Below are positions 19,234 through 64,000 of a DNA stretch of 64,000 nucleotides, piece by piece. Every line of letters starts with the position of its first letter. The stretch's first letter is position 1. Both the position numbers and the translations under genes were made by a program. The stretch is from Woeseiaceae bacterium. GTDB lineage: Bacteria; Pseudomonadota; Gammaproteobacteria; Steroidobacterales; Woeseiaceae. The notes beneath the pieces were generated by a model. It worked only from the letters and a program-made list of their open reading frames with translations, made no database searches and was not told the origin of the DNA. The DNA lies in assembly GCA_024640345.1 (NCBI GenBank), contig JAHEFD010000001.1:18288-82287 (forward strand), written 5' to 3'.

Positions 19234-19377
19234 GGATGAATCATAGCAGTCAAATCATGAGGCCAGCGAAGTCGCCAGGCGCGACGTTACAAACAGATAC
19301 AAATTGAGACTAATTTGAAACCATTTTCTTCCGTACCCCGGCCAGAATCAATCCTCGCAAACTCGGAGGACAACCGA

Positions 19378-20745: not shown

Positions 20746-20759
20746 TTTACCCTGTGACA

Positions 20760-22354: not shown

Positions 22355-22356
22355 CC

Positions 22357-23816: not shown

Positions 23817-23826
23817 GAGCATCACA

Positions 23827-27707: not shown

Positions 27708-28724
27708 TTACTTCCTGGCTGCCTCGTAACCGGCCTCCAGGTAAAGCTGGGCTGCTTCCATTGTGCAGGGTGCCTGGATGATTTCGCGATCGGCCAGTTT
27801 GCGCCAGTGGTGCGAGAACGTAACCGGTTCGGCAAGGTACACGGGATCCGTTACCGTAATTTCGGCCGCGAGATGCAGGCCACCATCCGACATCGTGAAT
27901 CTTTCCACCAGGTGCTTCTGCTCGCTTGAGCTGATGCCGGTGTGGATACCCCACTCATCTGCGATGAAATTGGTGGTCTCGACGACCAGCGTGTCACCCT
28001 CAAACCACCCGACAGAATGGCCCATCTTGGATGGTGCTCCGACTTCGTGATCGCGATCGAAGTGCACAACCCGAAGTTCTTCCATTAACTCGCGTTCCAT
28101 CACGAGCGTGTTGGCATCGGGCCTGGTAAAAACGACCGGGTAGGGAATGAGCATCGATTTCGGTGGGCCGGGATTACCGCAAGTCACCATCGGATTCTGG
28201 TCTTCGCTGAAGTTGTCGACCTGCGCCTGTCCAAGTTTTGACAAGGGCCAGCCAACCGGCGGCTTGTAGTGTGGCTTGAAACCGCCGGGATCGTCGCGCT
28301 TCCAAAGACCCGTGAAATCTGTAGAGGGCGTTATCTCTGCTGCGACATCCGTGGACGCACCAACGCGCGTGCCGTCGCCGGTTTCAGCCCATTGAAGGCC
28401 CGTGTAGTGTCGGTCCGAATCTTTATCGTGGGCGCCGTACCAGATAATTCTGTCGCCCGGTTTCCAGCTTGTCTTGCTCCAGCCCTTGGCAGCCATCGCC
28501 GGTGGATGTTCCATCTCGATCGTGTATTCGACTATCCGTCCCTTGTCGTCCGGCCCTTTAACCTTCAGGTAAACATGGGGCATGGTCCAGCCGTACTTGA
28601 CCACGACACCTTTGTAGGTGCGGACGTCGTCCATATTGAGCGAGGCATGAGAGTGATGAGCAAACCCGGCAACAGGAACAGCAAGCCAGGCGAACAGAGC
28701 GAGCAGATGTATACGCTTGATCAT
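27708..28724 (-). CDS. Secreted two-domain protein: N-terminal HHS (DUF6152-like) domain plus C-terminal WxGDTLVVET domain
   Basis: ATG at 28724. Signal peptide MIKRIHLLALFAWLAVPVAGFA is followed by HHSHAS, then WTMPH. The C-terminal half is similar to ORF 61773..62591. Confidence 0.7.
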   Translation of the reverse strand: MIKRIHLLALFAWLAVPVAGFAHHSHASLNMDDVRTYKGVVVKYGWTMPHVYLKVKGPDDKGRIVEYTIEMEHPPAMAAKGWSKTSWKPGDRIIWYGAHDKDSDRHYTGLQWAETGDGTRVGASTDVAAEITPSTDFTGLWKRDDPGGFKPHYKPPVGWPLSKLGQAQVDNFSEDQNPMVTCGNPGPPKSMLIPYPVVFTRPDANTLVMERELMEELRVVHFDRDHEVGAPSKMGHSVGWFEGDTLVVETTNFIADEWGIHTGISSSEQKHLVERFTMSDGGLHLAAEITVTDPVYLAEPVTFSHHWRKLADREIIQAPCTMEAAQLYLEAGYEAARK

Positions 28725-28728
28725 AGTC

Positions 28729-29952
28729 TTAGTTCCCCATACCAGGCAGTGCCCGATTATCCTCGGCGAGGCAATTCGCCTCCCTGACGTCGCCATGCAG
28801 CATGCGATCGCGGAACTTCGTGTGCCGCCATTCCCCGATCCAGTGCTCGGGGTCAGTCATGATGAAATCCATCTTCAACGTGTTGCCGTCATTGATCATC
28901 GAAATACGTTCAGTAATCTTGAGCTGGTTGCCCGTAAAGATGCCCTGCTGGATCAGGTGGTTCTCGTCTGTAAAACCCTCCGTTTCAACCACCAGTGTGT
29001 CGCCTTCCCAGTGGCCCAGTGACTCACCGTTCCAGTTGGGATCGCGCAGATTCGCCGGTTGACGCTCACGGCCATCGAGAAAAATCACGCGATACTCGTT
29101 GTTGAGCCTGGAGACCATGAAGATTGCTGTCGGGTACTGCAGCATCATCATGGATCCGAATCGTGTCATAAGTCTCGGCATGCCGGCCGGATAACAGAAA
29201 GCCGTTGGCTCGGCGTAGCGCTCTCCTTTGGTCGCATAACTGAGGTATTCGTCGTAGATCCGCTTTCCTTTCTCCGTGAATTCCGGGTGAGGTTTGAATT
29301 CGTAGCGACCATAATGCGGCTGCTCCGAGTCTTCACCCCGAAACGCCCAGGTGCCGGTAAGATCAAACGGTGGTTTTGGCCTGGGCTTGGCCAGGTTCTC
29401 GGCATCAAGGGCGCCGAGTACCGGATTCGCAGCCTTCGAGGGAATCGGCAGCTGCGGCGGCCGTGTTCGCGCTTCGCGCTTTTGCCATGTGTCACCAGCC
29501 GGTGGTGGAACATAGGGCGTCAGCGACGGGATTTGTTGCGGTACCTCTTCCGCTACGGTCGGGGTTTCCGCATATTCCATGCCGAACGTTTTGCCATTTG
29601 CGAGTGTCATTCCCTGCAATAGCCCGCCGGGTTTTCCCGACTTCAGTGGATTAATCAGAACCGTGATCTTGTCGCCTACGGACAGGGAATCGCGCGTAAA
29701 TCCATTCGTGACCATTTCTGTCGGGCTGCCACCCTCAATCAGCCACGGCTCCGACTTGCCATCTTTCTCGACGTCAATGGTGATGCTCAGGTGAGGGTTT
29801 CTCCAGACAAACTTCGCGACTGTACCGGATACAGTCGTCGTTTCGCTTCTGTCGAAAGCAACCGCAGAGTGGTGAGCCGGGGCGATCCGCGGCCAACTGA
29901 GGACCGACATCACGAGGATTGTTAGGAGCTTATTTTGGGCTGACAGGTGCAT
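28729..29952 (-). CDS. Secreted two-domain protein, paralog of 27708..28724
   Basis: ATG at 29952 (GTG alternative at 29982). Signal ...VLSWPRIAPA is followed by HHSAVAF, then WRNPH. C-terminal HWEGDTLVVETEGF. Confidence 0.7.
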   Translation of the reverse strand: MHLSAQNKLLTILVMSVLSWPRIAPAHHSAVAFDRSETTTVSGTVAKFVWRNPHLSITIDVEKDGKSEPWLIEGGSPTEMVTNGFTRDSLSVGDKITVLINPLKSGKPGGLLQGMTLANGKTFGMEYAETPTVAEEVPQQIPSLTPYVPPPAGDTWQKREARTRPPQLPIPSKAANPVLGALDAENLAKPRPKPPFDLTGTWAFRGEDSEQPHYGRYEFKPHPEFTEKGKRIYDEYLSYATKGERYAEPTAFCYPAGMPRLMTRFGSMMMLQYPTAIFMVSRLNNEYRVIFLDGRERQPANLRDPNWNGESLGHWEGDTLVVETEGFTDENHLIQQGIFTGNQLKITERISMINDGNTLKMDFIMTDPEHWIGEWRHTKFRDRMLHGDVREANCLAEDNRALPGMGN

Positions 29953-30163
29953 TTTCTCTTTCCCGCAAGGTTTTTGATACACGACAATGGATCGAGTATG
30001 TCACACAGATGCGCGACTTTCCGACGGTCCGTGCGTCGCTGTTGCACATTACAAAACACGCCGTTTTGACCGCATGCCCGGTATTTCGGTTCCTGCCCGT
30101 ATTGACGTGGATTGGCCAAAATAGGCTATCCTCGGCTCATCGATACCTAACCTGGTCATTTCA

Positions 30164-31393
30164 GTGAAAACCAATCGAAGACGTTTCCTTGCCGGATTAA
30201 GTGCGGTGGCACCGCTTGGCAGCATTATGTCGCAGAGCAGTATGGCAGCCGATGCGAGGGCAGCTGTAACACCCGACTATTTTGCCGACCTGGGGGTAAA
30301 GCCGTTTATCAATGCCATCGGCCCCTATTCATCGCTGGGCGGTAACGAAATGTGGCCGGAAGTCATCGAAGCGATGGATTACGCTATTCGAAACAAGGCA
30401 AAGATGACCGATCTTCATGATGCGGTCGGACTGCGTATCGCCGAACTGACCGGCGCGGATGCCGCTATGGTTTCCTCGGGCGCAACCGGCGCGATCATCC
30501 TGGGCACGGCAGCCTGTATGACAAAGGGCGACGAGGAAAAGATCGAACGCATTCCGGACACGTCGGGCATGCCCAACGAAGTGCTTATCCTGAAAAGTCA
30601 GCGTTACATGTACGACCGCTCGATAAAGGCACCCGGCGCGCTGCTCGTGGAAGTCGAAACTGAGGATGATATCCGCGATGCCATCAGCGACAAAACAGCA
30701 ATGATGTTCTACCTGCTGAATCGACCGGACGACCTCAAAATCGATGTCGACGATTACATCGCGCTGGGGAAGGAGTATGACATCCCGATCTTCTGCGATG
30801 CAGCGACCACGGTGCCGCCGGTCAGCGGCATCAGGTCGACCGTAGAAAAAGGTTTCGACCTCGTCTGCTATTCAGGCGGCAAAGGATTGCGAGGGCCATA
30901 CAGTGCGGGACTGTTACTCGGCAGGAAGGATCTTGTGCGATTCGCGCGCATGAATGGCTCACCGAATCATCGTGCCTATGGCAGGAGTATGAAAGTCGCA
31001 CCTGAGGAATACCTTGGCATGATGGTCGCTGTCGAAACGAGCCTGAAATTCGATGAAGAGGTCGAGTACGACCGCCAGTTGAAATCAGTCAATGCGATGG
31101 GCCGGGAACTCGTAAGACTACCCGGCGTTACCGTAGAGACCGCGGTGCCAAATGCTGAGGCACGTGAACCCTATATTGAAGTGCAATGGGATAAGCGTAT
31201 CTACGATGTCAGTGTTGCCGACCTGAAGCAGGCGCTGCGGGATGGTGAACCATCAATCGAGGTCAGGGCGCTGTTCCTGTCAAACAATCAACTGCACCTG
31301 ACAGCTGTTGCCTTAAAGAGTGGCGAGGCCGAAATCGTAACCAGGCGGGTCACGGAAATACTGAATTCCCGCCGTACCGGGGTGGAGGCGTAA
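30164..31393 (+). CDS. Tat-signal SelA-like (fold-type I) PLP-dependent enzyme
   Basis: GTG start. Twin-arginine motif NRRRFLAGLSAVAPLG...AADA. PLP-lysine region CYSGGKGLRGPYSAGLLLG resembles SGDKLLGGPQAG of the SelA/DgaE family. Confidence 0.7.
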   Translation: MKTNRRRFLAGLSAVAPLGSIMSQSSMAADARAAVTPDYFADLGVKPFINAIGPYSSLGGNEMWPEVIEAMDYAIRNKAKMTDLHDAVGLRIAELTGADAAMVSSGATGAIILGTAACMTKGDEEKIERIPDTSGMPNEVLILKSQRYMYDRSIKAPGALLVEVETEDDIRDAISDKTAMMFYLLNRPDDLKIDVDDYIALGKEYDIPIFCDAATTVPPVSGIRSTVEKGFDLVCYSGGKGLRGPYSAGLLLGRKDLVRFARMNGSPNHRAYGRSMKVAPEEYLGMMVAVETSLKFDEEVEYDRQLKSVNAMGRELVRLPGVTVETAVPNAEAREPYIEVQWDKRIYDVSVADLKQALRDGEPSIEVRALFLSNNQLHLTAVALKSGEAEIVTRRVTEILNSRRTGVEA

Positions 31394-32599
31394 ATGGCCA
31401 GGAGACGCACGGTTTTAAAATCCATTGCCGGGGCATTCTCGTTGCCCATGCTGGGTACAGCCGGTGCTGCGGCGACAATGAAGCCGGCGGCACGTGACTA
31501 TTTTCGTGAGCTTGGACTGACGCGCTTCATCAACGCGGCCGGCGCCTATTCTGCCTACGGAGGCGCAAGAATGCGCCCCGAAGTGGTCGAGGCCATGCGC
31601 TACGCCGCAAACAACAAAGTGAAGATGAAAGAGCTCCATGATGCAGTCGGTGAGCGCATTGCCGAACTTGTCGGGGCAGACGCGGCCATGGTGACGTCCG
31701 GAGCAACGGCATCGATCGTGCTCGGAACCGCGGCATGCATGACACTTGGAGACGAAGACCAGATGCGGCAGTTGCCTGACACGACGGGCATGAAGAATGA
31801 AATTATCATTCAGAAGAAGCACAGGTACACCTATGACCGGTCGCTGACGGTTGCCGGAGCGAAGCTTGTCGAAGTCGAGAATGAAAGCGATGTTCGTCGA
31901 AAGGTTTCTGACAGGACGGCGATGATGTTTTTCCTTCAACCGACGCAGGATGGCGATAACATTCCTGCGGCCAGTTACATCGAGCTCGCGCAGGAACTCG
32001 GCGTGCCTTCGTTTTGCGATGCTGCAACAACGACTCCGCCGGCCCGGAATGTCGTTGATGGTGTTAGCACCGGGTTCGACCTGATCTGTTATTCGGGCGG
32101 CAAGGGATTGCGCGGTCCGTACAGTGCCGGTTTGCTCCTTGGCAGGAAAGACCTGATCGGGTACGCACGTCGTCACTCCGCGCCGAACGATATATCGATC
32201 GGTCGTGGCATGAAGGTGTCCGCAGAGGAGTATCTCGGCATGCTTGTCGCCCTGGAGGCGGGACTGCGTGTTTCCGAGGCTGATGATTTTGCTTACAAGA
32301 ACGAACGCTTCCGCAGGATCATCGCAGAACTGGATGACGTGCCAGGAGTCCGCACGAAAGTGTTTGTATCAGAGGGGCACGCGAAGGAGCTCTATCTCGA
32401 TATCGATTGGGATACCGACATCATCGCCATGAGTCCACAGGATCTCGTCGAGGAATTACGTAACCACGATCCCTCTGTCGAAGTTCGGCTTTTTATTTTC
32501 TCCGGTGGCAGGATTCAGCTTTCAGCGACGGTCATGGATGAAGGCGAGGATGAACTCGTCGGACAGATTATTCGCGGGATATTGTTGTCGCATGCCTGA
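31394..32599 (+). CDS. Tat-signal SelA-like PLP-dependent enzyme, tandem paralog
   Basis: ATG directly after the upstream TAA. MARRRTVLKSIAG... twin-Arg motif. Same CYSGGKGLRGPYSAGLLLGRKDL motif and collinear similarity to 30164..31393. Confidence 0.7.
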   Translation: MARRRTVLKSIAGAFSLPMLGTAGAAATMKPAARDYFRELGLTRFINAAGAYSAYGGARMRPEVVEAMRYAANNKVKMKELHDAVGERIAELVGADAAMVTSGATASIVLGTAACMTLGDEDQMRQLPDTTGMKNEIIIQKKHRYTYDRSLTVAGAKLVEVENESDVRRKVSDRTAMMFFLQPTQDGDNIPAASYIELAQELGVPSFCDAATTTPPARNVVDGVSTGFDLICYSGGKGLRGPYSAGLLLGRKDLIGYARRHSAPNDISIGRGMKVSAEEYLGMLVALEAGLRVSEADDFAYKNERFRRIIAELDDVPGVRTKVFVSEGHAKELYLDIDWDTDIIAMSPQDLVEELRNHDPSVEVRLFIFSGGRIQLSATVMDEGEDELVGQIIRGILLSHA

Positions 32600-33680
32600 A
32601 GTGGAAGGCAAGGCAGCAACAAACGGCGACAGGATGCTGGCAGAGATCGTACTGCCGGGACGACCGCTAAAGGAGACGCTGGCGTTCTTTACGGAAGAAC
32701 TCGGCTTCCGGGTTGATTCAATCTATCCCGCAGACTCGCCCCGGGTGGCCGTGGTCTCAGCGCACGGCGTTCGTCTTCGCCTCGACACCGATGCCCAAAC
32801 CGACCCCGGCGTAGTCCGAATGGCTCGTGGCGATATGGTTGGCGGGGAGTATGTGGTTGCCCCGAATGGTACGAAAATAGACTTTTTTCCGGCAGAGCAA
32901 CCGCTCACGATACCGATTCCCCGCCCGTCCCTCGCTATTCTGAATCCGGGCGCTGGTGCCGGCTTCGGAGAGGGCCGCGCCGGGATGCAGTACCGCGACC
33001 TTATTCACGATCGTTTCGGCGGCAGTTTCATTGCATCGCACATACGTATAAAGGACGGTGGGCCGGTCGCCGATTATGTGCACCATCATCACATCCGTTT
33101 CCAGATGATATTCTGCGTGCGCGGCTGGGTGAGCGTGGTGTACGAAGACCAGGGACCACCGATCCTGCTTGAAGCGGGTGATTGCTTCCTCCAGCCGCCA
33201 CACATTCGACATCGCGTACTGGAGTCGTCAGACAACATGGAGGTTGTCGAGATTGCCTGCCCGGCTGAACATGAAACCTGCGTCGATCATGAAATGGAAC
33301 TGCCGACAGGCTCGGTGAATCCTGATCGCGATTTCGGTGGGCAGAAATTTGTATTTCACGATGCGAGTGAATCACCCTGGCTCTCATGGCACGTCCCCGG
33401 ATTCGAATACCAGGACACGGGTATCGATGAGGCGACAAACGGTATCGCTTCCGCAATTGTCATCAGGGCGAGCGGTGAGATAGCAACGTTACCGTTAGGT
33501 CATGATGCGGAGCTTCGATTTCTGTTTGTCCTTCAGGGCAAAGCGTCTTTCGTGCATAAGAAGCATGTTGACGCTCTCGGGCAGAACAGCTCATGTGCGA
33601 TCCCTGGCGATCTTGCCTGCGAGCTCACCGACATCTCGGCGGACTTCAGAATGCTTGAAGTATTTGTTTCCAGCCGATAA
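32592..33680 (+). CDS. Cupin-domain protein (VOC-like N-terminus plus two cupin-like modules)
   Basis: ATG at 32592 overlaps the upstream gene by 8 nt. HHHHIRFQMIFCVRGW...PPHIRHRV cupin-like His pattern. No signal peptide. Confidence 0.6.
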   Translation: MPEVEGKAATNGDRMLAEIVLPGRPLKETLAFFTEELGFRVDSIYPADSPRVAVVSAHGVRLRLDTDAQTDPGVVRMARGDMVGGEYVVAPNGTKIDFFPAEQPLTIPIPRPSLAILNPGAGAGFGEGRAGMQYRDLIHDRFGGSFIASHIRIKDGGPVADYVHHHHIRFQMIFCVRGWVSVVYEDQGPPILLEAGDCFLQPPHIRHRVLESSDNMEVVEIACPAEHETCVDHEMELPTGSVNPDRDFGGQKFVFHDASESPWLSWHVPGFEYQDTGIDEATNGIASAIVIRASGEIATLPLGHDAELRFLFVLQGKASFVHKKHVDALGQNSSCAIPGDLACELTDISADFRMLEVFVSSR

Positions 33681-52571: not shown

Positions 52572-54584
52572 TTATGTCGAATGCTTGCCCGCCATGCTCG
52601 CCGGCAAGTCGGCATCGGGAAGTTGCCTGAGAACTGGTTCCAGAATATGAACCAGCTCGTCGAGATGCGCTTCGTAGTTGCGCCAAAGGTTGACTGAGCT
52701 CGAGTAAATCGGTCGCCGTACCTGTTCGGAACTGGCCGTCTTGACCGCTCGCTCGGTTTCATGGAAACGGAGACACTGCTCCTCGAAGGGCAGCCCGCAG
52801 TAGTCGAGAATACGCTGCACTGCCGAATCGAGATCGGCGACAACCGCTTCGTACTGGACATCCAGGATGAATCCCGGCATCACTTCGTGCCAGTGATCCA
52901 ACAGGTGGACATATTGCAGGTAATACTCGCCGAGCTCCGTCATATCGTAAGTAAACGGCTGGCCGCTGGCGAATAACTGCTTGAATGAGCCGAAACAACT
53001 GTCCAGCGGATGCCGCCTGGCGTTGATGATTTTGCAGTTTGGCAGCGCGAGCTTTAAAACACCGGCGTAAATGAAGTTGTTGGGATTCTTGTCGACAAAG
53101 TAAGGTGCCCCACTGCGAAAGATTTCCGTACGTCGCAGGTACTCCTCGCCGATACTTCGCCATTCATCGTTATTGAGGTTGGTCAGAGCCTCAGGGAATC
53201 GCGAGTGCTTTCGCGAGCGCCGGCGTACGGACTGAACCGCGCGGGACAGATCCCCCAGCTCATGCGTGCCGTCTACCTGGCTGTGGCTTGCCAGGATTTG
53301 TTCGATCAGTGTAGATCCTGATCGCGGCAGGCCCACGACAAAAATTGGCGTGACTGGCGACGGGGCGACACCTGCGTTTCGATTGATAAATTCAGCGTTA
53401 AATAAATCGATGATTCGATTCTGGGTGCTCTCGGTTTCCACCGGATCGTACGACTCCAGTTTTCGCCGCACCTGGTTACAGCTGTCAAAATTCTCAAATG
53501 CCTGTGCGTAGTCCTTGCGGCCTTCATATTCGAGGCCCAGGGCGTTATGGACCTGGCTCCTCGCCTCATCCGAAAGATCGTCCGATTTTAGCAACTCATG
53601 CATCGCGTCGACCTCGGCATCCGTGAAACGAAAGGTCTTGAGGTTGGCCAGGCTCCAGTACGCCTCCGCGTGATCGGGTTTGAATGCGATCGCCTGGCGG
53701 TAGCTGTTGATGGCTTCGTCCTGTTGCCCGATGGTTTTCTGGTGGTGCGCCATTCCGCAAAACACGCCAGCCCGCTGGGGAGCGTACTCAAGCGCGCGCT
53801 GGTAGGCGGCGATGGCGCCTTCATGATCGCCCGCCATACCGATTGCGCTGGCATAAACCATATGCGATTCAGGACTTTCGGGCGCGAGCTGCAGCACTCG
53901 TGATGCGCTTTCAATCGCTTCATTGAATTTGTCGAGTTCGCGTTGGACATTGGTGAGATCAACCCAGGCGCGCGTGTAATCAGGCGCCAGTTCAACGACC
54001 CGCAACAGGAAGATTTCCGCCTCGCGAAATCTCTTGTGTGTTGCAGCGATACTGGCAAGCAGGCGTGCCGCCTCGACATGCCTGGGATCTTTTTTAAGGA
54101 TATCCCGGTAAATCATTTCGGCCGTCTGGGGGTCGCCGCTGCGCTCATGTTCAAGGGCCCGGGCAATCTCGGCGTCGAAGGGCATTTTCGGTCGATCTGA
54201 ACGATCCGGTCCGGATCCCTCGGCCGCTGGTGCCGCTTTGGCTCGTTCGATCTTGTCGTGAATAACGGGGCGCGTCGGATCAAGCCGCATCGCGTGCTCG
54301 TATGCCCTGAGACCCGCGGCGGACTGCCCCTGGATCATCATCAGGTCGCCGTAGGTCTCGTGTGCCAGCGCAAATTCCGGGTACAGGCGAATAGCCTCGT
54401 CCACGCGCTGCCTGGCGATCGCAAAATTTTTCATGGCGAGGTTTGCCATCGCCGCGAGGCACAGAAAATTGGCGTCTCCCGGGTGGGTTTTCAGTATCCG
54501 GTCACATATTTCGGCCGCCATCCTGGTGTTGCCGGCCCGAAGGTGCGCCTGTGCGTTTGCAAATTGTTCTTCACGTTTCACCAT
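52572..54584 (-). CDS. TPR-repeat sulfotransferase-family protein
   Basis: N-terminal TPR-like repeats. C-terminal PAPS 5'-PSB motif GLPRSGSTLIEQILASH and RRHPLDSCFG region. Confidence 0.8.
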   Translation of the reverse strand: MVKREEQFANAQAHLRAGNTRMAAEICDRILKTHPGDANFLCLAAMANLAMKNFAIARQRVDEAIRLYPEFALAHETYGDLMMIQGQSAAGLRAYEHAMRLDPTRPVIHDKIERAKAAPAAEGSGPDRSDRPKMPFDAEIARALEHERSGDPQTAEMIYRDILKKDPRHVEAARLLASIAATHKRFREAEIFLLRVVELAPDYTRAWVDLTNVQRELDKFNEAIESASRVLQLAPESPESHMVYASAIGMAGDHEGAIAAYQRALEYAPQRAGVFCGMAHHQKTIGQQDEAINSYRQAIAFKPDHAEAYWSLANLKTFRFTDAEVDAMHELLKSDDLSDEARSQVHNALGLEYEGRKDYAQAFENFDSCNQVRRKLESYDPVETESTQNRIIDLFNAEFINRNAGVAPSPVTPIFVVGLPRSGSTLIEQILASHSQVDGTHELGDLSRAVQSVRRRSRKHSRFPEALTNLNNDEWRSIGEEYLRRTEIFRSGAPYFVDKNPNNFIYAGVLKLALPNCKIINARRHPLDSCFGSFKQLFASGQPFTYDMTELGEYYLQYVHLLDHWHEVMPGFILDVQYEAVVADLDSAVQRILDYCGLPFEEQCLRFHETERAVKTASSEQVRRPIYSSSVNLWRNYEAHLDELVHILEPVLRQLPDADLPASMAGKHST

Positions 54585-54689: not shown

Positions 54690-55568
54690 TTGAAAACGTT
54701 CAGAGACGCCGTTCGAAACAGCGATTTCGCTGTGTCAGCAGAGATATATCTTCGCGCAGAAACAGATGCGGACTCGATTCGCGAGCAGGCTGGGGTTCTG
54801 AAAGATCATGTTGATGGCATTTTGCTTACGGACAATCAGTACGGACAGCTGCACATATCGACAATTGCGGCTGCGAGCATATTGCTTGATTGCGGGGTTG
54901 ATCCGATTGTCCAGTTGACCAGCCGCAACCGTAACCGGATTGCGCTGGTAAGCGACTTGCTCGGTGCCGGCGCGCTGGGGATTACCAGCCTGCTGCTCGT
55001 TGCCGGTGAGCGCGCGCCAAAGGAATTCAAGCCCAGGCCAAAACCGGTACTCGACCTCAGCGCGACAGAACTTATCAGGACAGCTACGACAATCAAAATG
55101 GACGAAAAATTGCGGACAAACCCCGATTTTTTCATCGGAGGCGTGGTGACGCCTGTGGCACCTGGCCCCCACTGGAGACCCAGGAAATTACTGGAAAAAA
55201 TAGAAGCGGGCGCGCAGTTCATACAGACTCATACGTGCATGGATATCGATCTGCTGCGTCGTTACCTGAAGCACCTGGTGCGGGAAAAACTGATCCAGCG
55301 AACAAGCGTAATTGTCTCGCTTGCCGTGCTTTCCTCGGCAGAAGATGCCCAGTGGCTCAGAGATAACCGGCCCAACGTCATGCTTCCTGACGCCGTCGTA
55401 ACGCGACTTGAGATGGCGGATGATCCGGAACAGGAGGGTATTCGTATCTGTGCCGAGATTATAGAGGCATTGAAGAAAATCCCCGGAGTCGATGGTGTCA
55501 GTATCATGGCGACTCGTGACCTGGCGGTTATCCCGAAAGTGATTAGCGCCGCCGGTCTGTCTTCCTGA
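54690..55568 (+). CDS. Methylenetetrahydrofolate reductase (MetF/PF02219)-like protein
   Basis: TTG start. ...VQLTSRNRNRIALVSDLLGAGALGITSLLLVAGE resembles the TCRDRNR...LGI.N.L.L.GD core of MTHFR-like proteins. Confidence 0.6.
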   Translation: MKTFRDAVRNSDFAVSAEIYLRAETDADSIREQAGVLKDHVDGILLTDNQYGQLHISTIAAASILLDCGVDPIVQLTSRNRNRIALVSDLLGAGALGITSLLLVAGERAPKEFKPRPKPVLDLSATELIRTATTIKMDEKLRTNPDFFIGGVVTPVAPGPHWRPRKLLEKIEAGAQFIQTHTCMDIDLLRRYLKHLVREKLIQRTSVIVSLAVLSSAEDAQWLRDNRPNVMLPDAVVTRLEMADDPEQEGIRICAEIIEALKKIPGVDGVSIMATRDLAVIPKVISAAGLSS

Positions 55569-55582
55569 CGGGCGAGAAGAAG

Positions 55583-57562
55583 ATGACTGGCGATTCCCTG
55601 CAAGCGGTTGAAGAGGTAGTGCGGTGTATAGGCGAGGGCAATCTGGAGGCCGGATTGTCGATGTGCCGGTCGAAGTTGCAGGACAATCCGGATGACGTAA
55701 ATCTCACCGCGTTGCTCGGGGCGATCCTGTTGAAGGCAGGTCACGCTGATGATGCCCTGCAGTATTTACAGCGCGCTATTTTACTTGAGCCCGAATTTGC
55801 CAAGCCGTACGAGGATCTCGGTACCTTGTACCTTGAACGAGATAACGCGGAGCTCGCGGCAGGTTCGTTCAAAAAAGCCATCGAGCTGGGAGGACCGCAG
55901 CCCTCGGCCCTGAAGGGCCTGGTGGTCGCCCTTTATCGCTCCGGCCGTACCGAAGAGGCCGAGTCGCTCCGTTCACAATACTTCCCTGAATCGGCAGGCT
56001 CCCCGTTTTCTCCCGCGCTTGCCGAGGCTCATAAATTGCGCTCATCCGGCGACCTGCGTGGTGCAGAAAAGCTCTGTCGCGAGCTTCTTGAGAAAGAACC
56101 GGAGAATATTCCTGCGTTGCGATTGCGGGCATTCATCGCGACGGACGAAAAGAGTTATGGCAGCGCCGAGCAGCTGCTGCGCCGCGTACTGAGCATGACA
56201 CCGGACAGCGCCTCTGCCGTACTCGACCTGGCTCAGTTACTGGGAGATCGCGGCCGTTACCCGGAAGCGATGGAATTACTTGAACAGGTTTCGGACGGCG
56301 CGAGGGAATATCCCGACGCCCGGCGCTCACTTGGCGACATGCTGGCGATTGTCGGTCGATCGGCCGAGGCACAGCAGGCATACGAAGACTGCCTTCAGGT
56401 CCGGCCAAATGACCCGCACGCAATCCTGGGTCTCGCGCATATGCAGCGTATCGAGGGTCACAGCGAGGAGGCGGTCCGGTCGTATCGTCAATGTATCGCT
56501 GTCCGGCCGGATATGGGTGATGCCTGGTGGAATCTCGCGACTATGCGGGGATACGTTGCCACTGACGACGATGTGAACGCCATGCTGCAGCTGGTCGAGT
56601 CAGGCACTCTCGTGTCCGGTGCCGAAATCCCGTTTCGATTTGCCCTTGCGCGCGCATTTGAAGAGCGCAATGACTACGAACGCGCCTGGGAGCAGTATGT
56701 AGTCGCTAACTCGGCCAAGCGTGCGTTGGTTAAATACGATCCGGTAGAGATCGAATCCCAGAATCGCCTGATCAAGGAAGTATTTGACGCGACACAAGAC
56801 GCTGGAAAAAAGGCATCGATACCGAGCGATGTCACACCCATTTTCGTGTTGGGCGTTCCGCGTTCCGGTTCAACGCTTATCGAGCAGATACTGGCCAGTC
56901 ACAGTTCAGTTGCCGGGTGTGGAGAGCTGCCCTACGTAATCATGTTGTCGACTTCCGCAGCGGCTGGCAGCGCGGGCGGCCTGGTATACCCGAGGATCCT
57001 GAACGAGTTGACTGACGCGCAGTTGACCGGGCTTGGTCGAAGCTATCTGTACTACGCTTCATCACACAACGTGGATGGGAAGCCGTTCATTACAGACAAG
57101 ATGCCGGCCAATTTCTCGCATGTCGGTTTTATCAGTCGGATTCTGCCACACGCGAAAATCATCGATGCTCGCCGAAACCCGATGGCTACCTGCATTGCGA
57201 ATTACCGCCAGCTGTTCGCGCAGGGCAAGAATCAATCCTACGACCTTACAGAGCTCGGCGAGTATTATTTGCAGTATGTCGACATGATGAGTCACTGGGA
57301 CAAAATTCTGCCTGGCGCTGTTTTGCGCGTTCAATACGAAGACGTCGTCGCTGATATTGAAGGGCAGGTGCGGCGCCTGCTTGACTACTGTGAGCTTCCA
57401 TTCGAGGAAGGCTGCGTTGATTTTTACAAAAGTACGAGAGCCGTTAACACGGCAAGCTCAGAGCAGGTGCGGCAGCCGCTTTATAGTTCCGCTGTCGACT
57501 TCTGGAAAAACTATGAACCTTACCTGGATGAGCTGAGAGAAGTTCTCGCACCGATTCTGTAA
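55583..57562 (+). CDS. TPR-repeat sulfotransferase-family protein (paralog)
   Basis: TPR repeats. GVPRSGSTLIEQILASH and RRNPMATCIANYRQLF. 14 nt downstream of the MTHFR-like gene. Confidence 0.8.
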   Translation: MTGDSLQAVEEVVRCIGEGNLEAGLSMCRSKLQDNPDDVNLTALLGAILLKAGHADDALQYLQRAILLEPEFAKPYEDLGTLYLERDNAELAAGSFKKAIELGGPQPSALKGLVVALYRSGRTEEAESLRSQYFPESAGSPFSPALAEAHKLRSSGDLRGAEKLCRELLEKEPENIPALRLRAFIATDEKSYGSAEQLLRRVLSMTPDSASAVLDLAQLLGDRGRYPEAMELLEQVSDGAREYPDARRSLGDMLAIVGRSAEAQQAYEDCLQVRPNDPHAILGLAHMQRIEGHSEEAVRSYRQCIAVRPDMGDAWWNLATMRGYVATDDDVNAMLQLVESGTLVSGAEIPFRFALARAFEERNDYERAWEQYVVANSAKRALVKYDPVEIESQNRLIKEVFDATQDAGKKASIPSDVTPIFVLGVPRSGSTLIEQILASHSSVAGCGELPYVIMLSTSAAAGSAGGLVYPRILNELTDAQLTGLGRSYLYYASSHNVDGKPFITDKMPANFSHVGFISRILPHAKIIDARRNPMATCIANYRQLFAQGKNQSYDLTELGEYYLQYVDMMSHWDKILPGAVLRVQYEDVVADIEGQVRRLLDYCELPFEEGCVDFYKSTRAVNTASSEQVRQPLYSSAVDFWKNYEPYLDELREVLAPIL

Positions 57563-58237: not shown

Positions 58238-60298
58238 TTACTGTTCTGCCCGAATCTCTTCGGAAAGTGAAAGTACAAAATTCCTGATCGCCTCGGCTTC
58301 CCGGACCTCGAGTTTGAATGGCGGCATTCCGTTTGATACGCGCGCCCCGCCAATCACAATGCCGTTCCAGGTTGCGTGGGTCGTTTCGTCGGCGTATCGA
58401 AGATCCGGCACGGAGCCGCCAAACCGGGCTTCGCCATCGACGCCGTGGCAACCTTTGCAGTAGCCTGCATACAACGCCTTGCCCATGCCTATCATCTCAG
58501 GCGTGGCATCGAGCGCGGGCTGATCCGGCAAAGGTGGATGGGTATCGCCCGAATCCGGTATAGCCGTGTTTGCGCCAAGCGAGAATGCCATCAACCGGGT
58601 TGGCCCTCTCGCATTGTCTGTCGCATGCATCTTCGGGTAGTAAAACTGCACACCTCCGCCCGCACCGACAGGAATCACGACGAATTGTTGCTCGCCGAGC
58701 AAATAACTGGCGGGCGCCGCGTTGATCGCCGAACCAGTGGTTACTGACCACAGTTCGTCGCCGGAATCGGCGGCGTAGGCGACAAACCGGCCTTCCGCAT
58801 TACCCTGGAAGACGAGGTTACCCGCCGTCGCCATGACGCCTCCGTTGTACGGCAAAGGATGATCGACTGTCCAGCGGACGCTCTGTGAAACCGGGTCGAA
58901 TGCGACCAGCTTGCCAGGGCTGAATTGCTTTCCATCGACTTCGGTGAACACGACCGTGTCGTCTTTGAATGTTCCGTCGCCGCGGGCTTCGAGAACGCTC
59001 GGCGCATCGACCACCGGGATATAGGACAGGCCCAGGCCCGGGTGGAAAGCCATCGGGTTCCAGCTGTGCGATCCCCACATGTTCGGCCAGACAACCGTCG
59101 TCTCGCCGCCCTTGATGTTCCAGTACTCGCCGGCCGGGTCGTAAACGGGCCGGCCGGTTTCCATGTTGATGTGGGTAGCCCAGTTTGCCTTGGCAAATTT
59201 GCCGGCTGTCAACAGTTCACCCGTATGCCGGTCCAGCGCATAGTGGAATCCGTTTTTTGGCGCGATCAGTACCGTTTCCCGATCTTCTCCATCGATATTC
59301 AGATCGGCCAGGATGATGTTCATCGTTGCATTGAAATCCCAGCTGTCCTGATCGACCGTCTGGTAGTGCCATGCATATTCGCCGGTTTCGGCGTTCACCG
59401 CGACAATGGATGACAGGAAGAGGTTGTCGCCGCCGCCGGGGCTTCTGTCCTTGTAAACGTATGGGTACGAACCGGATGTGCCGAAGAACAGCTGGTTGGA
59501 TTCCGGGTCGTAAGTCATTTCGTTCCAGCTGTGACCGCCGCCGCCATGCTTGGCCAGCGTGTCGCCTGACCATGTTTTTGCCGCCATTTTCATCGCCGGG
59601 GTGTCGTTCTCGTCGTCATTCGCGCTGGGAACGATGTAGAACCTCCAAAGCAATTCGCCGCTCTTGTGGTCGAAAGCGGAGACATAGCCGCGATCTCCGT
59701 CCGGTGATTCTGATCCCGCATTACCCACAAAGACCTTGTTGCCGCCGACATACGGAGAATCTGAAATCGAGTAGCCGGCACCGTTATCGCAGGTCTTTTT
59801 TGACCAGTTTACTTTGCCAGTCGCCGCGTCCAGGGAAATAAGCCGGCAATCGGCCGTGGTAGCAAAAACGCTCCCGTCCCACACGGCGACGCCGCGATTG
59901 ACTCGCGAGATCCACGACAGCCCGGGACTCTCGGCGAAGGATTTACGCACTTCCGGGTCGAACGACCAGAGGACCTCGCCATTGGAAGCATCGAGCGCGT
60001 AAACCACGGAATAAGCGCCGGACAGGTAGATGACGCCATCGACAACAATCGGGGTTGCCGAGATGCCGTCGGGAATCGGCAGGTTCGCCGACCATGCAAG
60101 GCCGAGCTCGTCGACATTTGCGTCGGTCACCTGTGATAAAGGAGAGTAGTGCGTGCCGCGAAAGTCACCGCCTTTCAGAAACCAGTTCGCGCCGCTCGCA
60201 GACTCGGCCAGCACCCGCTCGTTCGTTACCTTGCCTGCGCCTGGCACGGCAGTCGCCACAAACAGGAAACAGGTAAATGCAACAATTCGGTAATTCAT
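58238..60298 (-). CDS. PQQ-dependent dehydrogenase, quinohemoprotein (alcohol dehydrogenase type II-like)
   Basis: Signal peptide. VTNERVLAESASGANWF...HYSPLSQV propeller start. C-terminal cytochrome c motif CKGCHG. Confidence 0.85.
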   Translation of the reverse strand: MNYRIVAFTCFLFVATAVPGAGKVTNERVLAESASGANWFLKGGDFRGTHYSPLSQVTDANVDELGLAWSANLPIPDGISATPIVVDGVIYLSGAYSVVYALDASNGEVLWSFDPEVRKSFAESPGLSWISRVNRGVAVWDGSVFATTADCRLISLDAATGKVNWSKKTCDNGAGYSISDSPYVGGNKVFVGNAGSESPDGDRGYVSAFDHKSGELLWRFYIVPSANDDENDTPAMKMAAKTWSGDTLAKHGGGGHSWNEMTYDPESNQLFFGTSGSYPYVYKDRSPGGGDNLFLSSIVAVNAETGEYAWHYQTVDQDSWDFNATMNIILADLNIDGEDRETVLIAPKNGFHYALDRHTGELLTAGKFAKANWATHINMETGRPVYDPAGEYWNIKGGETTVVWPNMWGSHSWNPMAFHPGLGLSYIPVVDAPSVLEARGDGTFKDDTVVFTEVDGKQFSPGKLVAFDPVSQSVRWTVDHPLPYNGGVMATAGNLVFQGNAEGRFVAYAADSGDELWSVTTGSAINAAPASYLLGEQQFVVIPVGAGGGVQFYYPKMHATDNARGPTRLMAFSLGANTAIPDSGDTHPPLPDQPALDATPEMIGMGKALYAGYCKGCHGVDGEARFGGSVPDLRYADETTHATWNGIVIGGARVSNGMPPFKLEVREAEAIRNFVLSLSEEIRAEQ

Positions 60299-60457: not shown

Positions 60458-60487
60458 CGCGGCGCCTGGAGCCGCCGCGTCGTTTTT
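60458..60487. terminator. GC-rich hairpin immediately after the FAH-family stop codon (orientation ambiguous)
   Basis: CGCGGCG-N8-CGCCGCG then TCGTTTTT on the plus strand. On the minus (gene) strand there is no U-tract. Confidence 0.3.
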
Positions 60488-61622
60488 ACAGCGGGTCGCG
60501 ATAGGTGTCGACCGGTGGCAACTCCGCGCCCGACAGCCCGGCAGGTTTTTCTTCGCCAACGACCGGCAGTTTCAGCGTACCAATGCCCTCAATCGTCGCG
60601 GTGACCTCTTCGCCGGGCTGCAGGAACCTTTGTGCTCCTCGAACGGCCGTTCCCATTCCGGTGCCGCCGGATGTTCCGTTGTTGATGACGTCGCCGGGAT
60701 ATAGCGTGATGATCGAGGAGCCGTATTCGATCAGCTCCCACAATGAATGAATCATGTCGCCGGCAGTTGCTTCCTGCATCTGTTCATCGCCCACACTCAG
60801 TGACTGGCGCAGGATCTCCATGGGATTGCCATAGAACTCCTTGGGAACGATCCACGGTCCTTGTGGCGCAAACGTGTCATGACCCTTGCCAACAAACCAG
60901 TCGCTGGTGAAGCGAGCACCGCCGGGTGGTCGCCCGCCGCGATCGGAAATGTCCATCGTCACCATGTAGCCAAAGACATAGTCCTGGGCATCGTTGGCTG
61001 AAACGTATTTCGCGGTCTTTCCGATAACTGTACCCAACTCTACTTCCCAGTCGGTTCGGTTCCTGCCATAAGGAATAACGATCGGTGTCCGGTTACCGAC
61101 AACGGCCCCCCGGCTGGGTTTCAGGAACAGGTAGGGTACGCCGCGCTCTTCCCGTCGCAGGCGTGCGGCTTCACGACGTTCTTCTGGTGTACCTGACTCG
61201 TCGACGTGGCTGTAGAAATTGACGGCCGCATTCAGAATCTTGCCGGGATACATGATCGGTGGAAGCGTGCTGACGTCGTCAACATCGTGGATATACGCCG
61301 GCCTGGCAGCGCCGAGCATATTATTGGCGACGAGGTCATTGACGATTTCGTAGAGGCGGCGTTTAACGCCGTAGTCGTAACGTTCGATCAGCCCGATCAT
61401 GTCATCCGGGACAGGGAGGGCGGGGTAACCTGCATTTCTTTCGAGCGCTGCATTGGCCGCGTCGAGTTCAACGACCAGCTTGTCGCGGAGAACGATACCA
61501 ACCCATGGAGATCCGCCGGTATCGAATGTGCCGACTTTGAACGGTTCTGCAATTTCCTGCGCCGAACCGAACACTGGAATGAGCAGAAAAAGCGAAACAA
61601 CAGCAACAGAAACAGCGCGCAT
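60486..61622 (-). CDS. Fumarylacetoacetate hydrolase (FAH)-family protein with N-terminal signal peptide
   Basis: MRAVSVAVVSLFLLIPVFGSAQE. C-terminal FAH core ...YPGDVINNGTSGGTG...TATIEGIGTLKLPV. Confidence 0.75.
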   Translation of the reverse strand: MRAVSVAVVSLFLLIPVFGSAQEIAEPFKVGTFDTGGSPWVGIVLRDKLVVELDAANAALERNAGYPALPVPDDMIGLIERYDYGVKRRLYEIVNDLVANNMLGAARPAYIHDVDDVSTLPPIMYPGKILNAAVNFYSHVDESGTPEERREAARLRREERGVPYLFLKPSRGAVVGNRTPIVIPYGRNRTDWEVELGTVIGKTAKYVSANDAQDYVFGYMVTMDISDRGGRPPGGARFTSDWFVGKGHDTFAPQGPWIVPKEFYGNPMEILRQSLSVGDEQMQEATAGDMIHSLWELIEYGSSIITLYPGDVINNGTSGGTGMGTAVRGAQRFLQPGEEVTATIEGIGTLKLPVVGEEKPAGLSGAELPPVDTYRDPL

Positions 61623-61772: not shown

Positions 61773-62591
61773 ATGCAAATGCGACTCATACCGATTTACC
61801 TGTTGCTGGTTTTTCAGTGGGCCAGTTTCGCCAATGCGGCGGAATTGCCGGACTGGAGCGGAGTGTGGCAACGCTATGAAGGCAATGGCGGAATATTCGA
61901 TCCCTCGACCGTTGAGCCGCGAGACGGTCGCGCCGGGAGCCCCGGTGTCCGGCAATATCCGCCACTGACCAAAGCCTGGGAAGCCAGGTACGTGGCGACC
62001 CTTGCCCTGGTGGCAATGGATCGAGTTCCGGACCCGATATCGATCTGTGGCACGCCCGCAGGTTATCCGCGATTGCTGGCTTTGCCGGATGTTTACGAAT
62101 TTATAGTCCGGCCGGAAGCAACATGGATCATCACGGAGAACGGGCCGAACATCATGCGCATCTATACGGATGGCAGCGAACATCCGCCCGAGGACGAGCG
62201 CTGGCCGACCTTTACCGGCAATTCGGTCGGACGCTGGAACGACCAGGTTCTGGAGTTCACGACAGTAAGCATGATTGGTGAAAAGCACACCATTCTCGAT
62301 CGCAGTGGTTTGACGCTAAGTGACCAGGCCACGGTTGCGACTCGAATGTACCTGACCGATGAAGGGCTGCTGCGGGCCGAGCTGGTCATAGAGGATCCAC
62401 TCGCGCTGCGCGAACCCTGGCATGTTACCCGCCACTTTCGCCGGATGCCTGCCGGAACCCGCGCTTATGACTATGCCTGTGCCGAGAACAATCGAAATCC
62501 GATAACAGACTCCGGTCAGACACTCACGCTCGATACTGACGGCAACGTTATTGACAAGGTGATAGAGGGAGAGGTGATTGACAATGAATAA
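61773..62591 (+). CDS. Secreted protein homologous to the C-terminal domain of 27708..28724 and 28729..29952
   Basis: Signal MQMRLIPIYLLLVFQWASFANA. Shared landmarks are GVW.., C..PAGYPRL, GRWNDQVLEFTT (compare WEGDTLVVET), DP...EPW and CAENN. Confidence 0.65.
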   Translation: MQMRLIPIYLLLVFQWASFANAAELPDWSGVWQRYEGNGGIFDPSTVEPRDGRAGSPGVRQYPPLTKAWEARYVATLALVAMDRVPDPISICGTPAGYPRLLALPDVYEFIVRPEATWIITENGPNIMRIYTDGSEHPPEDERWPTFTGNSVGRWNDQVLEFTTVSMIGEKHTILDRSGLTLSDQATVATRMYLTDEGLLRAELVIEDPLALREPWHVTRHFRRMPAGTRAYDYACAENNRNPITDSGQTLTLDTDGNVIDKVIEGEVIDNE

Positions 62592-62952
62592 ACTCATGTC
62601 CGCTGTGGTCTTTGTACTTCTCTCCTCAACTCTGGCGATGGCGCATCACTCGAGTGCCATGTTCAACAAATCCGTGGTACGTGAGGAAACGGTTACGGTC
62701 AGGGAATTTCAATGGTCCAATCCGCATGTGTGGATTCAGATTGTCCTTACGAACGAAGAAGGCGAGGAGGTCGAATGGAGTATCGAAGGACTGGGACCCA
62801 ACAGCCTTTTCAGAAGTGGCTGGCGACCGAATTCATTCAAGCCTGGAGACGTCATAGAGATTCGATTCAACCCGATGCACGATGGTTCGAATGCCGGCGG
62901 GTTTATTGGTGCGAAATTTGCTGACGGGCACACACTGGGTACGTGGAAATAA
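62584..62952 (+). CDS. Stand-alone HHS (DUF6152-like) secreted protein
   Basis: ATG at 62584 after GAGGGAGAGG, with an 8-nt overlap with the upstream gene. Signal ...LLSSTLAMA is followed by HHSSAMF, then WSNPH and KPGDVIEIRFNP. Confidence 0.7.
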   Translation: MNKLMSAVVFVLLSSTLAMAHHSSAMFNKSVVREETVTVREFQWSNPHVWIQIVLTNEEGEEVEWSIEGLGPNSLFRSGWRPNSFKPGDVIEIRFNPMHDGSNAGGFIGAKFADGHTLGTWK

Positions 62953-62953
62953 C

Positions 62954-64000
62954 ATGATAAGAATCGCCCTGATCGTTTTGGCAGTTTTCTTGCCGGGCTT
63001 GCAGGCCGTCGCCCAGGATGGCGCGATTCTGCTACGTCCCGAACGGGTATTCGACGGTGAGCGAATGCACGAGAACTGGGTCGTTATCACGAGGGGCGAG
63101 CAGATCGTCTACGCCGGAGAAGCGGACGGCGCTGACGAATCAGGCATCGAGCGCAACATTGATTTGCGGGGAGCGACGCTGCTCCCGGGGCTGATCGAGG
63201 GTCACTCTCACATACTTCTGCACCCATACAATGAAACGAACTGGAACGACCAGGTGTTGAAGGAATCCCCGGCGGAACGGGTCGCACGGGCTGTAAACCA
63301 CGCGCGAAATTCCCTGATGGCAGGCGTTACGACGATGCGTGATCTTGGCTCGGAAGGCGCGGGTTACGCCGATGTCGGGATTCGCGATTCGATCAACAAG
63401 GGAATTATTCCCGGGCCGCGCTTATTGGTGGCCGGAAAGGCAATAGTCGCGACCGGAAGCTATGGTCCCAAAGGGTTTCACGAAGGTGTCGACGTGCCGT
63501 TGGGGGCGGAAACGGCTGACGGTTACGATGAACTCGTCAGGGTCGTTCGAAGCCAGATAGGGCAGAACGTCGATTTCATCAAGGTGTATGCGGATTACCG
63601 CTGGGGTCCAGACGGGACAGCCCAGCCCTCATTCACTCAGAACGAGCTGCAAACCATAGTTGAGGTTACCCGGAGCAGTGGTCGTCCTGTCGTCGTTCAC
63701 GCGGCAACGGCGGAAGGCATGAAGCGGGCAATTCTTGCGGGTGTTGAAACAATCGAACACGGAGACGGTGCAACGCGGGAAACCTACAAGCTCATGCGGG
63801 AACACAATGTTGCCTTGTGCCCGACGCTGGCGGCGGGTGATGCCATCGCGCAGTATGGTGGCTGGAGAAAAGGGGTCGATCCCGAGCCGCCCCGAATCGC
63901 CGCGAAGAGAAAAAGTTTCCGGGAAGCGCTCGATGCCGGTGTAAAGATCTGCTTCGGCGGAGATGTCGGCGTTTATCCGCATGGCGACAACGTTCGAGAG
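62954..64000 (+). CDS. Amidohydrolase-family protein, secreted (3' end beyond the window)
   Basis: Manual translation gives MIRIALIVLAVFLPGLQAVAQDG...LLPGLIEGHSHILLHPY...VVVHAATAEG...IEHGD. It starts 2 nt after the upstream stop and is open to the window end, so it is not in the ORF track. Confidence 0.75.
   Translation, partial: MIRIALIVLAVFLPGLQAVAQDGAILLRPERVFDGERMHENWVVITRGEQIVYAGEADGADESGIERNIDLRGATLLPGLIEGHSHILLHPYNETNWNDQVLKESPAERVARAVNHARNSLMAGVTTMRDLGSEGAGYADVGIRDSINKGIIPGPRLLVAGKAIVATGSYGPKGFHEGVDVPLGAETADGYDELVRVVRSQIGQNVDFIKVYADYRWGPDGTAQPSFTQNELQTIVEVTRSSGRPVVVHAATAEGMKRAILAGVETIEHGDGATRETYKLMREHNVALCPTLAAGDAIAQYGGWRKGVDPEPPRIAAKRKSFREALDAGVKICFGGDVGVYPHGDNVRE

Follow-up and report, generated by a model that had tools for sequence, protein, structure and literature searches.

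Split and fused forms of a secreted DUF6152 module and a predicted calycin-like barrel in a Woeseiaceae genome point to a functionally linked periplasmic pair

The window analysed here, a stretch of 64,000 nucleotides (nt) from a Woeseiaceae bacterium (GenBank assembly GCA_024640345.1, contig JAHEFD010000001.1, positions 18,288 to 82,287 of the forward strand), carries three copies of a pair of secreted protein modules. One module is the Pfam family DUF6152 (PF19649). The other, called the partner below, belongs to an unnamed family predicted to form a beta-barrel of the fatty-acid-binding protein (FABP)/calycin type. The two modules are encoded by separate, overlapping genes in one copy and by single fused genes, fusA and fusB, in the other two. 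The features are as follows, a caret marking the predicted signal-peptide cleavage site.

61773..62591, + strand: stand-alone partner gene, a secreted open reading frame (ORF) of 272 amino acids (aa) of the unnamed, predicted FABP/calycin-like barrel family
62584..62952, + strand: stand-alone DUF6152 gene, 122 aa, signal peptide ..TLAMA^HHSSAMF
62584..62591, + strand: stop/start overlap of 8 nt, ATGAATAA, with the partner stop at 62589-62591 and the DUF6152 ATG at 62584
28729..29982, - strand: fusion gene fusB, probable start ATG 29952, signal peptide ..RIAPA^HHSAVAF
27708..28796, - strand: fusion gene fusA, probable start ATG 28724, signal peptide ..VAGFA^HHSHASL

All four ORFs are as a first-pass annotation of the window had described them, with one minor correction: the partner may start at a second ATG, at 61779 instead of 61773, because its homologues begin MRL... 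Sec-type signal peptides are present on all modules; that of the stand-alone partner ends at the boundary ..SFANA^AELPDWSGVW. The 8-nt overlap of the partner's stop with the start of DUF6152, reported in the same annotation, is real, and it is of identical length in four relatives (L001-L004). A Shine-Dalgarno sequence, GGAGAGG, lies just upstream of the ATG at 62584. The overlap indicates that translation of the two genes is probably coupled. A programmed frameshift at ATGAATAA, yielding a partner-DUF6152 fusion, was considered and rejected: the overlap has no slippery site, and in such a product the DUF6152 signal peptide and the histidine that follows it (His1) would be buried. In fusB, the DUF6152 module (about 29620-29898) is joined by a structured connector of 60-70 aa to the partner barrel (about 28732-29388). 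In fusA, whose probable start at 28724 lies 4 nt after the fusB stop, the corresponding positions are about 28407-28682 and 27711-28343, with a short linker between them.

The three parts beginning His-His-Ser (HHS) that the first-pass annotation had grouped together belong to a single family. PF19649 matches the product of 62584..62952 (E = 4e-26, 91.4 bits), the N-terminus of fusB (E = 1.7e-26, 92.6 bits) and that of fusA (E = 1.1e-15, 57.9 bits), against a gathering score of 27 bits; in the fusions the matched part is about 95 residues long. The Pfam entry gives no described function. It spans only the module of about 98 aa, and leaves out the C-terminal barrel of the fusions and the link with the partner gene. 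Stand-alone and fused proteins alike are named 'DUF6152 family protein' by NCBI/PGAP, and literature searches for DUF6152 and PF19649 found no paper in the library searched.

The C-terminal 200 aa or so of both fusions had been aligned in order with 61773..62591, and this similarity is significant by every comparison made. BLASTP aligns the stand-alone partner colinearly with residues 147-334 of fusA (50.8 bits, E = 7e-12, 26 per cent identity over 214 columns) and with residues 230-410 of fusB (63.5 bits, E = 7e-16, 26 per cent identity over 184 columns). When each module was compared by phmmer with all 707 stop-to-stop ORFs of the window, the matches were these three loci only. A profile-profile comparison of the split and fused families, based on 121 stand-alone and 122 fused homologues with no row in common, gives a probability of 98.7 per cent and E = 3.8e-16 over 169 columns. 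Similarity by chance or composition is rejected on three grounds: BLASTP with composition correction, the profile comparison and the recurrence of one predicted fold in two independent models (see below). The split and fused partner modules are thus homologous, the homology covering about the last 210 aa of each fusion. The three partner modules of the window are only distant relatives of one another, each ranking about 180-280 of about 300 in the match lists of the others.

The landmarks picked out from the letters alone correspond to real conserved columns: G-x-W, C..P.G.P, G.S.G.W...L, DP and C.E. The glycine and tryptophan of the first are invariant among the partner modules of the window (G30, W32) and in the 122 fused sequences (G200, W202), and are at least 90 per cent conserved in 84 diverse partner representatives (G40, W42). 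The partner also has a conserved cysteine pair, the second cysteine being followed by a glutamate.

The partner family is very large. A profile search found 10,322 representatives (clusters at 50 per cent identity) at E <= 1e-3 and 4,166 at E <= 1e-10. This family of at least 10,322 clusters has no Pfam or NCBIfam model and bears the RefSeq label 'hypothetical protein'. Neither database has a match at E <= 0.1 for the 272-aa ORF or for the C-terminal half of either fusion, and NCBIfam matches none of the four window proteins. Single-sequence and profile searches of PDB with both modules gave nothing below E 0.6, so that no solved structure is detectable in this way for either. A search with 61773..62591 found 1208 homologues, of which the best 120 are all stand-alone proteins of 260-312 aa; an exact-sequence look-up of the protein gave no identical record. 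The best 150 partner representatives are mostly stand-alone and secreted: 84 consist of a single complete module (235-320 aa), and fragments are numerous among the rest. They include five fusions with DUF6152 first and about 17 partner-partner tandem fusions, and no Pfam domain other than DUF6152 is found in any of the 150. The partner often occurs without DUF6152, and its family far exceeds the fused set in size.

The first-pass annotation had taken the coexistence of fused and separate forms as a Rosetta-stone pattern, arguing that the two modules work together. The co-occurrence of the families was examined in two independently seeded samples. The first consists of 80 GTDB species-genome loci from Acidobacteriota and Gamma-, Alpha- and Betaproteobacteria, chosen solely by the partner motif WEGDTLVV and biased to partners of that type (the split partner of the window has WNDQVLEF). 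The second consists of 80 metagenome loci chosen solely by the DUF6152 motif FQWTNPH and biased to that motif. The hidden Markov models of both modules were built ad hoc, and the gene calls at the loci are crude.

DUF6152 is present within 8 kb in 60 of the 80 partner-seeded loci. These loci contain 152 partner domains; 73 have an adjacent DUF6152 on the same strand (41 immediately downstream, 32 upstream) and three are fused to it. Conversely, 73 of their 85 DUF6152 domains adjoin a partner or are fused to one. The DUF6152-seeded loci contain 92 DUF6152 domains. A same-strand adjacent partner was found for 58 (32 downstream, 26 upstream), an adjacent partner on the opposite strand for eight and a partner elsewhere in the locus for another eight. 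Sixteen, whose contigs end within 1 kb on one side, could not be evaluated. A partner is therefore present in the locus for 74 of the 76 evaluable genes, directly adjacent for 66 of them; the only two genes that lack one although both flanks reach 1 kb or more belong to the same locus. Partner-then-DUF6152 is the split order in the window, the reverse of the domain order in the fusions, as had been described; elsewhere both split orders are common (64 DUF6152-first and 67 partner-first, both samples pooled). The same association appears among RefSeq entries, for example in Croceibacterium atlanticum, where a partner labelled 'hypothetical protein' stands beside two 'DUF6152 family protein' genes and a TonB-dependent receptor.

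Adjacent pairs also co-diverge. In a mirror-tree comparison of 121 adjacent pairs, the distance matrices of the two modules correlate with r = 0.48, a value reached in none of 1000 permutations, and their nearest neighbours coincide in 47 of the 121 pairs. In Acidobacteriota and in Alpha-, Beta- and Gammaproteobacteria, adjacency of the two families is almost obligatory, and they co-occur far beyond chance. Homology, co-occurrence and co-divergence together strongly support a functional link between the modules, as the Rosetta-stone argument had it. Neither of the two outcomes that the first-pass annotation had named as refuting it, a non-significant C-terminal similarity and co-occurrence no greater than chance, was obtained. 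From this link we infer a physical complex of the two.

Fusion is a derived, recurrent, minority state, found in about 2-3 per cent of clusters. In a neighbour-joining tree read by Fitch parsimony, nine fused modules fall into seven groups with an unfused root and at least five changes of state, a small number of events drawn from a noisy tree. DUF6152 is N-terminal in both window fusions, in 120 of 120 fusB homologues, in all five fused representatives and in the three fused domains of the genome loci; no partner-first fusion was seen among the fusions found in the window, homologues, representatives or genome loci. Every fusion is probably DUF6152-first, although the split genes occur about equally often in either order, because only the N-terminal position lets signal peptidase free His1: the requirement that this histidine be free at the N-terminus would dictate the order. 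Were the partner first, the cleavage site would lie inside the chain and His1 would stay blocked.

The best 120 homologues of fusB (60-92 per cent identity) are all about 400 aa long and share its architecture, with PF19649 and the invariant HHS. The tandem order, fusB-type then fusA-type, is kept in close relatives with the same flanks. It is also found in a 64 per cent identical relative with different flanks (a thiamine pyrophosphate enzyme and cytochrome c upstream), which has an additional split pair 4 kb from the fused tandem. As this tandem is conserved across flanks, the two fusion paralogues may themselves work together. On the 5.8-Mb contig L088, a cytochrome c gene (L088:4601-5020) overlaps the start of the fusB-type gene, and a split partner (276 aa) with its DUF6152 gene lies 4 kb downstream of the fused pair, at L088:10309-11251. 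Fused and split versions thus share one neighbourhood there, as in the window. One representative (P0257, 321 aa) is a stand-alone relative of the fusB partner (323 bits), with its own signal peptide and without DUF6152. It retains the connector motif of the fusion, W..E.RTRPAQLP, and is either a fission product or a sign that the connector belongs to the barrel module.

Structural models were obtained with AlphaFold2 for fusB and, independently, for the split partner. The fusB model has a mean predicted local distance difference test score (pLDDT) of 83.5 and a predicted template modelling score (pTM) of 0.77, and its connector has pLDDT values of 84-96. The partner module and connector make up about two-thirds of the chain. 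As the pTM exceeds what the larger domain alone could give, fusB appears to have a defined inter-domain arrangement. Its partner fold consists of a strand (200-204), two helices (208-214 and 227-241) and then nine to ten strands, an order that is the topology of FABP; the split partner model (pLDDT 75) has the same strand-helix-helix-strands pattern. With both models, the best Foldseek matches are the cellular retinoic-acid-binding protein (CRABP), FABP and cellular retinol-binding protein (CRBP) group (E = 2-3e-4, probability 1.00, target TM-score 0.5-0.6), followed by weaker matches to avidin, nitrobindin and NanoLuc. The partner is accordingly predicted to be an FABP/calycin-like beta-barrel, a relationship that is a resemblance at the level of fold and not a membership at the level of sequence. 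A G-x-W in the first strand is a structural signature of the calycins. The resemblance to FABP, CRABP and CRBP extends to the ten predicted antiparallel strands, to the helix-helix insert after strand A and to the position of G-x-W in that strand. Unlike the FABPs, which have about 135 aa, the partner module has about 210-250 aa, is secreted and forms a pair with DUF6152, and has the two conserved cysteines as well as long extensions at its N- and C-termini.

The DUF6152 part of the fusB model has the DSSP order beta (39-50), beta (55-63), beta (66-73), helix (77-82), beta (95-103) and beta (109-116). Its sole Foldseek match, a weak one, is the N-terminal oligonucleotide/oligosaccharide-binding (OB) domain of lysyl-tRNA synthetase (E = 1e-3), which suggests a small OB-like barrel of five strands.

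The most constant feature of DUF6152 is its N-terminus. A hydrophobic signal peptide followed by [A/G/S]^HH[S/G/A] is found in 85 of 85 DUF6152 domains of the genome loci. It also begins all 122 fused sequences, none of which departs from H27, H28 and S29. Cleavage of the signal peptide as predicted leaves histidine as residue 1 of the mature protein; the product of 62584..62952, read from its sequence, would begin His-His-Ser. The three copies in the window read A^HHSSAMF...FQWSNPH (split), A^HHSHASL...YGWTMPH (fusA) and A^HHSAVAF...FVWRNPH (fusB), fusA having TMPH where the others have xNPH. The near-invariant columns of DUF6152 are H1, H2, W25, N27-P28-H29 and E49, and H2, H29 (of the NPH motif) and E49 are candidate second metal ligands by their conservation.

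The genomic context of the pair elsewhere is varied. There are 132 Pfam families among 120 neighbours, the commonest being TonB-dependent and other outer-membrane barrels, CarboxypepD_reg/beta-propeller proteins, DUF6644 membrane proteins and major facilitator superfamily (MFS) transporters; metallo-beta-lactamase-fold proteins and amidohydrolases are also common. Neighbour clustering and Pfam scans revealed minority associations only and no conserved third component. As the nearest other genes are so heterogeneous, the two-gene unit is the sole constant of the loci. The pair is also subject to paralogue expansion, with three pairs in the 64-kb window and up to four DUF6152 genes within 16 kb elsewhere. 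The DUF6644 neighbours are small proteins with four transmembrane segments and a conserved C-terminal GRWIGF motif, and adjoin the pair in nine of the 80 genome loci:

L011, L015, L017, L023, L031, L034, L037, L061 and L082: loci with an adjacent DUF6644 gene, for example L031:7073-7573

DUF6152 and the barrel very probably form a two-part periplasmic protein, which is perhaps a metalloprotein. The reading that we favour, and consider reasonably probable, is that they are two halves of one periplasmic unit in which an N-terminal-histidine metal site is docked on a ligand barrel. Its genes would be either a pair coupled in translation or a single fused one. Signal peptidase would expose His1, whose amino group and side chain would form a metal site of the histidine-brace type, completed by the NPH histidine, the conserved glutamate and the conserved tryptophan. 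Analogy makes Cu(II) the likeliest metal. The ten-strand barrel of the partner, its cysteine pair probably joined in a disulfide, would hold a small organic ligand or substrate, with the metal subunit docked on it. Since the module stands on its own, has expanded strongly into paralogues and recurs in varied catabolic and uptake neighbourhoods, in the window beside an amidohydrolase, we favour a substrate-diversified role in binding or processing small molecules over housekeeping metal homeostasis.

The analogy is with proteins in which cleavage of the signal peptide frees an N-terminal histidine: YcnI (DUF1775), CopC, the lytic polysaccharide monooxygenases (LPMOs), the PCuAC domain of PmoF and particulate methane monooxygenase at its CuB site (PMC8424229). 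The copper site of YcnI also uses Glu50 and Trp137, and DUF1775 is fused to PCuAC in some proteobacteria (PMC8424229). Like these copper proteins, DUF6152 appears from its sequence to be a small secreted beta-domain with an invariant, cleavage-exposed histidine and conserved His, Glu and Trp, and a CopD-like membrane protein sometimes stands beside its gene pair. Unlike them, it has a His-His-small motif and a predicted OB-like fold, neither cupredoxin nor Ig-like, is without sequence similarity to them, and has an obligate calycin-like barrel partner that is absent from those systems.

The pairing itself also has parallels. Among periplasmic metal-handling proteins, ZinT assists ZnuA, and ZinT/ZnuA with the AdcA fusion form a Rosetta-stone case in which one module is likewise a calycin-like barrel. 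As in ZinT/ZnuA-AdcA and DUF1775-PCuAC, two secreted modules are encoded here by neighbouring genes or as a single chain; unlike in those cases, the DUF6152 fusions are fixed with the small module first, and the families are unrelated to those.

Several observations weigh against the metal-site reading. A conserved histidine is absent from the partner. DUF6152 is not found within 8 kb in 20 of the 80 partner-seeded loci. The partner-partner tandems, about 17 of the best 150 representatives (e.g. P0249, P0252, P0256 and P0272; 450-530 aa), are without DUF6152; they suggest that the barrel dimerizes and that a second barrel copy can replace DUF6152. In four genome loci with such tandems (L046, L062, L068 and L083), DUF6152 is likewise not found within 8 kb. 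That no reverse-order fusion was seen is only suggestive, with P about 0.03 if there were five fusion events and 0.25 if there were two. The Foldseek matches of the partner are modest (TM-score 0.5-0.6, root-mean-square deviation 6-8 Å, 10-15 per cent identity), and the OB-like assignment of DUF6152 comes from a weak match and topology. The heterogeneous neighbours point to no specific metal or substrate. Two of five DUF6644 proteins show near-full-length similarity to CopD, at E = 0.0023 and 0.1, below the Pfam threshold, and their presence beside the pair is a weak lead towards a metal site.

Three other explanations were weighed. The modules might be functionally linked without any metal, as a periplasmic pair that carries or escorts small organic molecules, probably hydrophobic ones. 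The barrel would then bind the cargo, and DUF6152 would act as a lid, as a docking adaptor to TonB-dependent receptors or enzymes, or through a His-His peptide inserted in the barrel. The FABP/CRABP-like fold is indeed a ligand-carrier fold, the lack of a conserved histidine in the partner agrees with a metal-free function, and a diversity of cargoes would fit the paralogue expansion. TonB-dependent receptors and outer-membrane barrels account for about 10 of the 120 neighbours and MFS transporters recur, but the receptors occur in a minority of loci only. Such a carrier would also leave the invariant post-cleavage His-His (85/85 and 122/122), the NPH histidine and the glutamate poorly explained, and we regard it as unlikely. 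The N-terminal His motif recalls YcnI and CopC, and would fit a role of DUF6152 in periplasmic acquisition or chaperoning of copper or another metal, which it would pass to membrane importers or periplasmic metalloenzymes with the barrel as an accessory subunit, much as ZinT assists ZnuA. The CopD-like DUF6644 neighbours in 9 of 80 loci agree with this, as do the metalloenzymes nearby (amidohydrolases, metallo-beta-lactamase-fold proteins, pyrroloquinoline quinone (PQQ) dehydrogenases and, in relatives, nitrile hydratase). However, the CopD similarity falls below threshold, and no metal-responsive regulator, P-type ATPase, CopA/B or PCuAC turned up near the pair. To find as many as four DUF6152 genes in 16 kb, or three pairs in the 64-kb window, would also be unusual for homeostasis. 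Such a role in acquisition or chaperoning is decidedly improbable on this evidence.

It is also conceivable that the two genes are a selfish or neutral cassette, co-inherited and occasionally fused by accident, whose products act independently. The partner does occur alone or tandem-duplicated in a sizeable minority of loci, and shared species history could account for part of the mirror-tree correlation. Against this, adjacency is kept across phyla, in differing neighbourhoods, in both orders and with overlapping stop and start codons; the fusions arose repeatedly and have been kept in large clades at 60-92 per cent identity; and a compact two-domain arrangement is predicted by AlphaFold2. 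The chances of a neutral cassette are therefore very small.

Other genes surround the pairs in the window. The split pair is followed by a third operon gene:

62954..64000, + strand: secreted amidohydrolase (Amidohydro_1, E = 1.7e-20)

This gene starts 1 nt past the DUF6152 stop and extends beyond the end of the window. In four relatives, the split pair is followed by the amidohydrolase and then by the beta and alpha subunits of nitrile hydratase. On the other side, at 60486-61622 (- strand) and divergent from the pair, lies a gene for an FAA_hydrolase-family protein (fumarylacetoacetate hydrolase; E = 1e-49), whose position is kept in relatives. The protein has an apparent N-terminal signal peptide, MRAVSVAVVSLFLLIPVFGSAQE; a secreted enzyme of this family would be unusual. 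Further upstream are a PQQ quinohaemoprotein dehydrogenase with PQQ and cytochrome c domains (58238-60298) and two paralogues combining tetratricopeptide repeats with a sulfotransferase domain (Sulfotransfer_3, E about 1e-47), at 52572-54584 (- strand) and 55583-57562 (+ strand), with a gene resembling methylenetetrahydrofolate reductase (54690-55568) between them.

The fused pair adjoins a convergent run of genes of lipid-modification type at 19315-27662 (+ strand): DUF4397, a CMAS-like methyltransferase, DUF1295, DUF6134, amine oxidase, DUF1365 and cyclopropane-fatty-acid synthase. On its other side are tandem paralogues at 30164-31393 and 31394-32599 (+ strand), with twin-arginine-like signals (RRRFLAG and RRRTVLKS) and only weak similarity to the SelA/pyridoxal phosphate (PLP) fold, followed by a cupin protein at 32505-33680 (+ strand). 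This trio is kept, in divergent orientation, beside the fused pair in relatives L085-L087.

The linkage of DUF6152 with a very large unnamed family is real and previously undescribed; it is a lead and not a demonstrated new mechanism. One far-reaching proposal is that the pair represents an unrecognized and very widespread class of periplasmic metalloproteins, two-subunit or single-chain, in which a His-brace-type centre (probably copper), borne by an OB-like subunit over the mouth of an FABP-like barrel, serves a new kind of enzyme oxidizing or processing small molecules. We hold this to be quite improbable; if true, soil and marine Acidobacteriota and Proteobacteria would carry the class in the form of many diversified paralogues. 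A His-brace-type site carried by an OB-like fold, with a calycin barrel as its docking partner, would be a new scaffold for a class of copper sites that draws attention through the LPMOs and methane monooxygenase. The fixed order of the fusions would be a clean example of signal-peptide processing constraining domain architecture. If no metal is involved, the result would still be a sound, if ordinary, improvement in the annotation of thousands of genes. In either case, linking DUF6152 with its partner turns what were separate uncharacterized families into one testable unit.

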